From assembly GCF_001677475.2 (NCBI RefSeq), contig NZ_CP015229.1: a stretch of 64,000 bases of DNA, one strand, 5' to 3'. The DNA is from Escherichia coli (GTDB lineage Bacteria; Pseudomonadota; Gammaproteobacteria; Enterobacterales; Enterobacteriaceae). A program made the position numbers and the translations under genes. Below are positions 18,600 through 18,988 of the stretch, piece by piece; the stretch's first letter is position 1; every line of letters begins with the position of its first letter. Below the pieces are notes generated by a model, which saw only the letters and a program-made list of their open reading frames with translations, did not search any database and was not told the origin of the DNA.

Positions 18600-18616
18600 C
18601 ATCATTGTTAGTCAAT

Positions 18617-18648
18617 TCGACCAGTCAGCAAATATGCTGACTGGTCGA
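18617..18648. repeat. Perfect 13-bp inverted repeat with a 6-nt spacer just 3' of elaD
   Basis: tcgaccagtcagc-aaatat-gctgactggtcga read directly from the sequence; no U-tract follows, so it is not a canonical intrinsic terminator. Confidence 0.7.
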
Positions 18649-18988
18649 ACATAGTTTGCTAAAAAGTCATCACTGACTGATGCCAGTCACACCATCCGCC
18701 AGTTCAATCTGCGGGTATTTCCAGCGTATCGCGGCACGCGATTGCTGGTCTGTTGATGTAGTGGATTGTTGTTGCTGACTTTTCTTACCCTCAGATTTCT
18801 GCACCCTGTCAATTCAATCTACCAATATATAACATAATTATTTTTTATTTCTCATATGAATTCCTTTTTAAAATAGCGAAGTCACTGAAAAAATATTTTT
18901 TGTATATTCCTACCAACCGTAATAAAATAAACGTTCATAACTCATTATAAATAATAATGAAATAACGCCTTTTATTAATAATTTACAT

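Follow-up and report, generated by a model that had tools for sequence, protein, structure and literature searches.

Escherichia coli K-12 carries yfbK between elaD and yfbL. In the stretch of E. coli DNA analysed here (64,000 nucleotides of contig NZ_CP015229.1, assembly GCF_001677475.2; hereafter the window), the same two genes are separated by only a few hundred base pairs, which raises the questions of how yfbK came to be missing, whether the empty or the occupied site is the derived state, and whether a palindrome that follows elaD had any part in the change. Our analyses make it very probable that the spacer was left behind when an internal part of yfbK was deleted long ago, that the window carries a common yfbK-minus haplotype, and that the hairpin was not involved.

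Remnants of yfbK between elaD and yfbL

Both genes that bound the spacer are intact. On the left lies elaD (17376-18599, plus strand, 407 aa), which encodes an ElaD/SseL-family deubiquitinase and was assigned from the open reading frame list and from the same name in matching genomes; its 3' end shares 96% nucleotide identity with K-12, and an identical copy at another locus (L013) matches the Pfam families ElaD_SseL/Peptidase_C48. On the right lies yfbL (18989-19960, plus strand, 323 aa; Peptidase_M28), which encodes an M28 metallopeptidase. The spacer between them (18600-18988) measures 389 bp and holds no ORF longer than 44 aa, in keeping with the initial annotation, which had given this length and had seen no ORF of 60 aa or more. 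Its GC content is 34.7%, as compared to 51.9% for the whole window, with most of the AT-richness residing in 18801-18988 (22.9% GC) and with 18600-18800 at 45.8% GC. The former divergent intergenic region between yfbK and yfbL (18856-18988) is very AT-rich, is 66-67% identical to the K-12 spacer, and presumably holds the yfbL promoter; a promoter consensus scan returned a single promoter-like site there, on the minus strand only. Because the region is 100% identical to an independent draft assembly (GCA_016118665.1) over 6972 bp, the absence of yfbK is not an assembly artefact. The best match to positions 14000-24000 among 5426 complete E. coli genomes reached only 98.5% (strain ST2747), such that the lineage of the window is poorly represented among complete genomes.

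The K-12 reference locus (L001, taken from MC4100) has the order elaD (plus), yfbK (minus, 575 aa, with a vWA domain), yfbL (plus), yfbM, yfbN (minus), yfbO, yfbP and nuoN. This record confirms the K-12 order that had been given earlier (elaD, a minus-strand yfbK of about 575 aa, yfbL) as well as the proposal that yfbK is missing here, with the gene present in K-12 and only remnants of it in the window. Aligning the two loci with blastn revealed that window 18300-18709 corresponds to L001 4035-4444 at 96% identity, a stretch that takes in the end of elaD, the hairpin and the final 40 nt of yfbK, and that window 18709-18729 corresponds to L001 4657-4677 (20/21), an internal yfbK piece in the correct order and orientation; beyond it, window 18730-19300 aligned to L001 6001-6581 at 83%, running through the initial 132 nt of yfbK and the intergenic region into yfbL. 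On the minus strand there remain a 3' remnant made of the stop and codons 564-575 (IELADGVTGISQ*, with asterisks denoting stops; 18670-18708; L001 4405-4444 by blastn and 11/12 residues by tblastn), a 21-bp internal piece of codons 486-492 (IRWKYPQ; 18709-18729; 7/7 by tblastn, in frame), and a 5' remnant of codons 1-44 (18730-18855; aligned to L001 6001-6132, with a tblastn match to aa 24-44). The tblastn search with K-12 YfbK, which had been suggested as a way of finding such remnants, recovered aa 24-44, 486-492 and 564-575 abutting in one frame, and the minus-strand translation of 18855-18670 reads MRNKK*LCYILVD*IDRVQKSEGKKSQQQQSTTSTDQQSRAA, then IRWKYPQ, then IELADGVTGISQ*. Both the former ATG (18855-18853) and the terminal stop (18672-18670) of yfbK have survived, the elaD and yfbK stops stand 70 nt apart in the window as in K-12, and 186 bp of yfbK sequence (18670-18855) are left as compared to the full 1728 bp in K-12. 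An earlier description of the spacer as AT-rich non-coding DNA is therefore right as to composition and wrong as to the lack of features, since these 186 bp are what is left of a gene.

With respect to K-12, two segments of 441 codons (aa 45-485) and 71 codons (aa 493-563) are missing, both in frame, and the junctions fall at 18708/18709 (with 1-nt ambiguity) and 18729/18730 with microhomologies of 1 nt and 0 nt. Direct or inverted repeats flanking the junctions were sought as a deletion mechanism and none were found, and a test for IS-mediated deletion revealed no IS element or IS end at the junctions in the window spacer. No intact yfbK (an ORF of ~575-588 aa with vWA and YfbK_C domains) is present in the window, which instead holds three fragments with two in-frame stops; these are colinear with yfbK and lie on the minus strand at the orthologous position and in the same orientation, as in a deletion-derived pseudogene. 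The stops lie in the 5' remnant together with 6 nt of indels, and both the signal peptide and the lipobox are destroyed. This remnant is only 72-76% identical to intact yfbK alleles, as compared to ~95% for the 3' remnant and middle piece, and because it is so much more diverged, simple neutral decay since a single deletion is insufficient to account for it.

The largest ORF touching the spacer is a GTG-started frame of 44 aa (18670-18804, minus strand) that some RefSeq genomes annotate as a 'hypothetical protein' (CA897_RS24280). We rejected it as a real small gene on the grounds that its stops are allele-specific, that its start codon is lost in one allele (through a 13-nt deletion in elppa5), and that substitutions show no codon-position bias (2/5/3 at codon positions 1/2/3); this small sample of six alleles shows no sign of purifying selection on the frame. 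The 'hypothetical protein' is a yfbK remnant, for which a pseudogene feature would be the proper annotation.

The hairpin downstream of elaD

A perfect hairpin (18616-18649), with 15-nt arms at 18616-18630 and 18635-18649 and a 4-nt loop, stands 17 nt after the elaD stop. It had previously been given as a perfect inverted repeat of 13 bp at 18617-18648, which was correct in its perfection and too short in its arms. The hairpin folds at ~-30 kcal/mol on either strand (z about -7 to -7.5; 0/200 shuffles as stable) and is unique in the 64-kb window, where 0 matches are expected by chance. K-12 has an identical hairpin, with the stops of the convergent genes elaD and yfbK on either side, and it occurs as a single copy in 4042 of 5426 genomes of both yfbK types, including K-12 MG1655 and O157:H7. 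Across the aligned alleles it is kept while the immediately flanking bases vary, and the HCM-27C-1 allele has one C-to-T change at the top of the stem.

Scanning 18300-19200 against Rfam at a permissive E-value returned no family, the palindrome giving only a chance microRNA-hairpin match (23 bits versus a gathering value of 70). With one copy per genome in those 4042 genomes, a unique occurrence in the window and no Rfam family, the hairpin does not fit a REP/BIME-like repeat or a known RNA family. As to Rho-independent termination, the hairpin provides a stable, GC-containing 3' stem-loop and lacks a U-rich tract (plus strand CATAGTTTGC, minus strand TTGACTAAC), and it went uncalled on both strands in a terminator scan with a threshold of 5 T or more in 8 nt; a consensus scan found one weak terminator-like site at 18687-18672 on the minus strand, inside the yfbK remnant. 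The hairpin belongs to the elaD 3' region in strains with and without yfbK. From its position and conservation, it is most readily taken as the 3'-end stem-loop of the elaD transcript, which would serve as a non-canonical terminator or a stabiliser, a reading that we hold at about even odds.

Frequency, polarity and origin of the deletion

To place the window among other E. coli, its locus was compared with 5426 complete genomes by blast using an 801-bp query that spans elaD, the spacer and yfbL. Counted at a coverage of at least 80%, elaD-yfbL adjacency was found in 2579 of these genomes, and the yfbK interior was found in 2538 genomes of the same set. An alignment of six alleles that lack yfbK, taken from unrelated strains (the window, a cheese isolate, a blood isolate, HeN100, cattle strain 110 and bovine TC24), revealed that both junctions are identical and that the 21-bp piece is present in all, with junction identity thus referring to these six alleles and the remaining ~2570 genomes being judged by blast coverage only. 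Identical junctions in all six argue for one old event and, judged from the sequences, the yfbK deletion would have arisen once and is now a major allele, present in roughly half of E. coli genomes.

The relative timing of the elaD and yfbK events is suggested by the C-terminus of the remnant. elaD is absent in UTI89 (phylogroup B2) and in two diverged Escherichia loci (L015 and L018), and its absence from phylogroup B2 has also been reported in a 2025 ElaD survey (PMC12575377). Similarity to genomes that lack elaD picks up again 17 nt into the 3' end of yfbK, so that strains with elaD encode a different YfbK C-terminus, and the remnant of the window ends in IELADGVTGISQ, which is the elaD-linked type of K-12 and not the elaD-less type (...GLAKDLDNSQN in UTI89). 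The deletion would then have followed the insertion of elaD beside yfbK. As an observation on elaD itself, the gene has the look of an inserted island (35% GC; window 17376-18690, K-12 L001 2939-4421). The history that we infer would begin with yfbK as a vWA-domain lipoprotein gene on the minus strand between its two neighbours, next to which elaD was presumably inserted before any deletion took place. The two junctions would reflect either two successive deletions or one event with two template switches, and the joined yfbK frame would later have gained stop codons and small indels. Having arisen once, the allele would have spread to roughly half of E. coli, with the window carrying this common haplotype.

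Three alternative origins can be weighed against this history. The initial annotation had left it undecided whether the site records a deletion or an insertion in K-12, and an ancestral empty site into which yfbK was inserted in K-12 is scarcely credible. The region is a patchwork of indels in which elaD (35% GC) and yfbN-O-P (40% GC) are low-GC insertions, but yfbK is represented at the supposedly empty site by its two ends and an internal piece, in order and in frame, which argues for deletion and not for insertion. Genomic-island insertion is likewise contradicted by these remnants and by the presence of yfbK at the same locus in two other Escherichia lineages, namely L012 (seen in a partial view) and L018, the latter with an intact 584-aa gene that has vWA and YfbK_C domains and with flanks 86% identical to the window. 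yfbK also has a GC content of 47%, near that of its neighbours yfbL and yfbM (45-46%). In Escherichia sp. MOD1-EC7003, a separate species with flanks 94-95% identical, yfbK sequence is contiguous with yfbL. Of the two options, the deletion has therefore held up and the insertion has not.

A recent deletion private to the window strain or its lineage, as the term strain-specific had implied, has next to no probability. Nothing speaks for it beyond the comparison with K-12 alone, and it is contradicted by the adjacency common to nearly as many genomes as not, by junctions common to alleles that differ by 9-15% in the adjoining block, and by O157:H7 genomes, which belong to the yfbK-less class. 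Comparison with other E. coli, which had been proposed as a check, thus overturned the strain-specific part of the claim while leaving the gene order of K-12, with yfbK in between, as given. The palindrome, in turn, had been placed at the deletion junction, and it is highly improbable that it caused or marks the deletion, whether as a recombination site or by way of slippage promoted by the hairpin. Palindromes that are long and perfect are able to stimulate deletions, and this one stands 60-80 bp from the junctions; however, it lies outside the deleted interval, is touched by neither junction and is intact and identical in yfbK-plus K-12, so that it appears unrelated to the deletion and does not mark a junction at all. 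The junction microhomology of only 1 nt and 0 nt also speaks against such a role, as do the deletion end points of independent alleles (L005, L006, L007 and L015), which are not clustered at the hairpin. A search of one literature collection found no paper on the yfbK deletion or on the elaD-yfbK hairpin. We retain a single old internal deletion, unrelated to the hairpin, as the origin of the spacer.

The divergent block and other states of the locus

Adjoining the deletion is a hyper-divergent haplotype block of 319 bp (18730-19048) that runs from the 5' remnant through the intergenic region to nt 60 of yfbL, and that is ~69% identical to K-12. The same value of ~69% separates yfbK-plus from yfbK-minus E. 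coli within the block, with flanks at 96-99%. Between window and K-12, identity is 95-96% to the left of the deletion, drops exactly at junction 18729/30, is 66-70% in the intergenic region and first 60 nt of yfbL, and returns to 94-100% in the 82 nt of yfbL that follow. Over 5297 genomes, identity to the window in the block has a bimodal distribution, in which 294 genomes lie at 95-99%, 228 at 90-95%, 2274 at 80-90% and 2501 at 60-80%. Among 60 evenly spread records listed, every full-length match of at least 85% lacked yfbK, every one of at most 74% had it, and no block identity fell between 74% and 85%.

We then compared the block with its flank (yfbL from nt 61 plus yfbM, ~1.5 kb) across lineages. 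The window and K-12 are 96.5% identical in the flank and 69.0% in the block; the window and L018 are 86.0% and 80.6% identical, K-12 and L018 85.5% and 77.6%, and K-12 and MOD1-EC7003 95.1% and 93.1%. Since block identity between window and K-12 is lower than that of either to L018, the two haplotypes coalesce deeper than the split from a lineage that is 14% diverged in its flanks. The outgroup shares 80% identity with the window type in the intergenic part and 90% at the yfbL start, as compared to 73% and 67% with the K-12 type, whereas in the 5' remnant the K-12 type is nearer to the outgroup (87% versus 76.5%), as expected if the remnant has been decaying. A progenitor with yfbK and a minus-type block was not seen among the 60 evenly spread records listed, and the room for one is small, given 2501 genomes in the 60-80% band as compared to 2538 with yfbK. 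A donor search through YfbL homologues returned none above 81% block identity, the closest being L018 at 80.6% to the window. When a degenerate yfbL pattern was run against a single genome from each species, one locus was returned, that of Escherichia sp. MOD1-EC7003, and the outgroups were three loci in all, with E. albertii, E. fergusonii and Salmonella outside the sample. The divergence extends into the YfbL signal peptide, which reads MKKITPLCFISLLLSLPF in the window versus MKKIIFAFIILFVFLLPM in K-12, and the window form resembles those of diverged Escherichia lineages (proteins P0013 and P0014: MNKITVLCFISLLLSLPL and MKKTTHLCFILLLLSLPL).

Could the yfbK-minus haplotype, deletion and block together, be more than an old neutral deletion? 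It might have introgressed from a diverged Escherichia-like lineage through homologous recombination within yfbL near 19048 on one side and illegitimate joining at 18729/30 on the other, or it might be a presence/absence polymorphism older than the species and held at intermediate frequency by selection. We regard this pair of scenarios as possible and, on balance, unlikely. In their favour are the low block identity between window and K-12 despite 96.5% flanks, the onset of divergence exactly at the junction, the clean and roughly 50/50 bimodality of the two classes with none listed in the gap, the sharing of the yfbK-plus block type with a separate species at 93%, and the match of the window YfbL signal peptide to diverged lineages. 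Against them, no donor above 81% was found, and the sequence left of the deletion is not more diverged (95-96%), which is unexpected for a long-balanced site. Three-taxon distances also put the longer branch on the K-12 type in the intergenic part and yfbL start, so that part of the 'divergence' belongs to the plus allele and not to the deletion allele, and outgroup sampling is thin at three loci. More doubtful still is the broader proposal that yfbK state and the linked 319-bp block form a dimorphism older than E. coli, with both forms shared with other Escherichia and kept at ~50% frequency by balancing or frequency-dependent selection or by repeated interspecies exchange; were it true, selection would act on a cell-envelope vWA lipoprotein and the neighbouring M28 peptidase. 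The block may derive from ancient polymorphism, inter-species exchange or a mosaic of both.

Beyond the block, yfbL itself comes in different states. Most yfbK-minus genomes, including O157:H7, have yfbL frameshifted near its start and annotated as a pseudogene or 'hypothetical protein', and the yfbL 5' end of such loci (L003, L004 and L010) has the look of the yfbK-plus type with a 4-6 nt deletion. The subtype of the window (~522 genomes of at least 90% block identity) has an intact yfbL with a different signal peptide. In strain 16843 (L006 2398-3537; protein P0004), a secondary deletion in a yfbK-minus locus has fused elaD codons 1-35 with sequence immediately upstream of yfbL, and the resulting kind of 378-aa ElaD(N-terminus)-YfbL fusion ORF is found on 86 contigs. 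At two further loci (L005 2981-3678 and L007 2248-2945), IS1 insertions with adjacent deletions have eliminated yfbL (TUM2820) or the 3' half of elaD along with the yfbL start (JNEC-KY203). A diverged Escherichia sp. without elaD (L015 4481-5000) has an independent, out-of-frame internal yfbK deletion of 1490 bp, whose 5' breakpoint falls ~13 nt from the E. coli breakpoint in a region encoding a Q-rich linker, and this linker-coding region may be a deletion-prone spot.

The window also lacks yfbN, yfbO and yfbP, and only positions 20567-20633 separate the stops of yfbM (20566) and nuoN (20634). In K-12 these genes form a 2.56-kb insert of 40% GC between the yfbM stop and the nuoN terminator hairpin (~20584-20615 in the window, AAAAAAACCGCCGAACATGTCGGCGGCTTTCT). 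The insert is found in only 1013 of 5426 complete genomes, nearly always with an identity of at least 99%, and most genomes thus lack it as the window does. The interval from rbn to nuoN as a whole looks like a hot spot of decay.

Taken together, the absence of yfbK is real but ordinary: the spacer is a common, anciently derived pseudogene remnant, already visible in thousands of annotated genomes, and it carries little weight for biology at large. yfbK is dispensable and has been repeatedly lost in Escherichia: about half of E. coli carry one ancient deletion allele, a diverged lineage has a deletion of its own, and several further losses are IS1-linked or larger. Wider interest lies only in the deep two-haplotype structure of the 319 bp, which is a possible case study for ancient or introgressed E. 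coli alleles.

Set beside known systems, the spacer is most directly comparable to the K-12 locus (b2269-b2271), with which it shares the flanking genes and their orientation, the hairpin at the same distance from elaD and the orthologous yfbK start and stop, and to the yfbK-minus loci of O157:H7 and of many commensal or laboratory strains, such as 110 (L004), HeN100 (L003) and TC24 (L010), which have the same junctions and the same three remnants and so share the allele by descent. It differs from the O157:H7-type loci in that yfbL is intact and not frameshifted, with the block 13-15% apart between the subtypes. The hairpin resembles the intrinsic or bidirectional terminators found between convergent genes in being a stable, perfect stem-loop between convergent elaD and yfbK stops in K-12, and it departs from intrinsic terminators in having no U-tract on either strand (tails CAUAGUUUGCU and UUGACUAAC); typical terminator stems are also shorter than 15 bp. 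Like the gene-remnant pseudogenes of enterobacterial genomes, the yfbK scar consists of colinear end fragments with disabling stops and indels and without codon-position bias, but unlike internal-deletion pseudogenes of those genomes, both of its losses have lengths divisible by three and leave a 21-bp internal piece standing between them, a combination that would fit template switching without being diagnostic of it.
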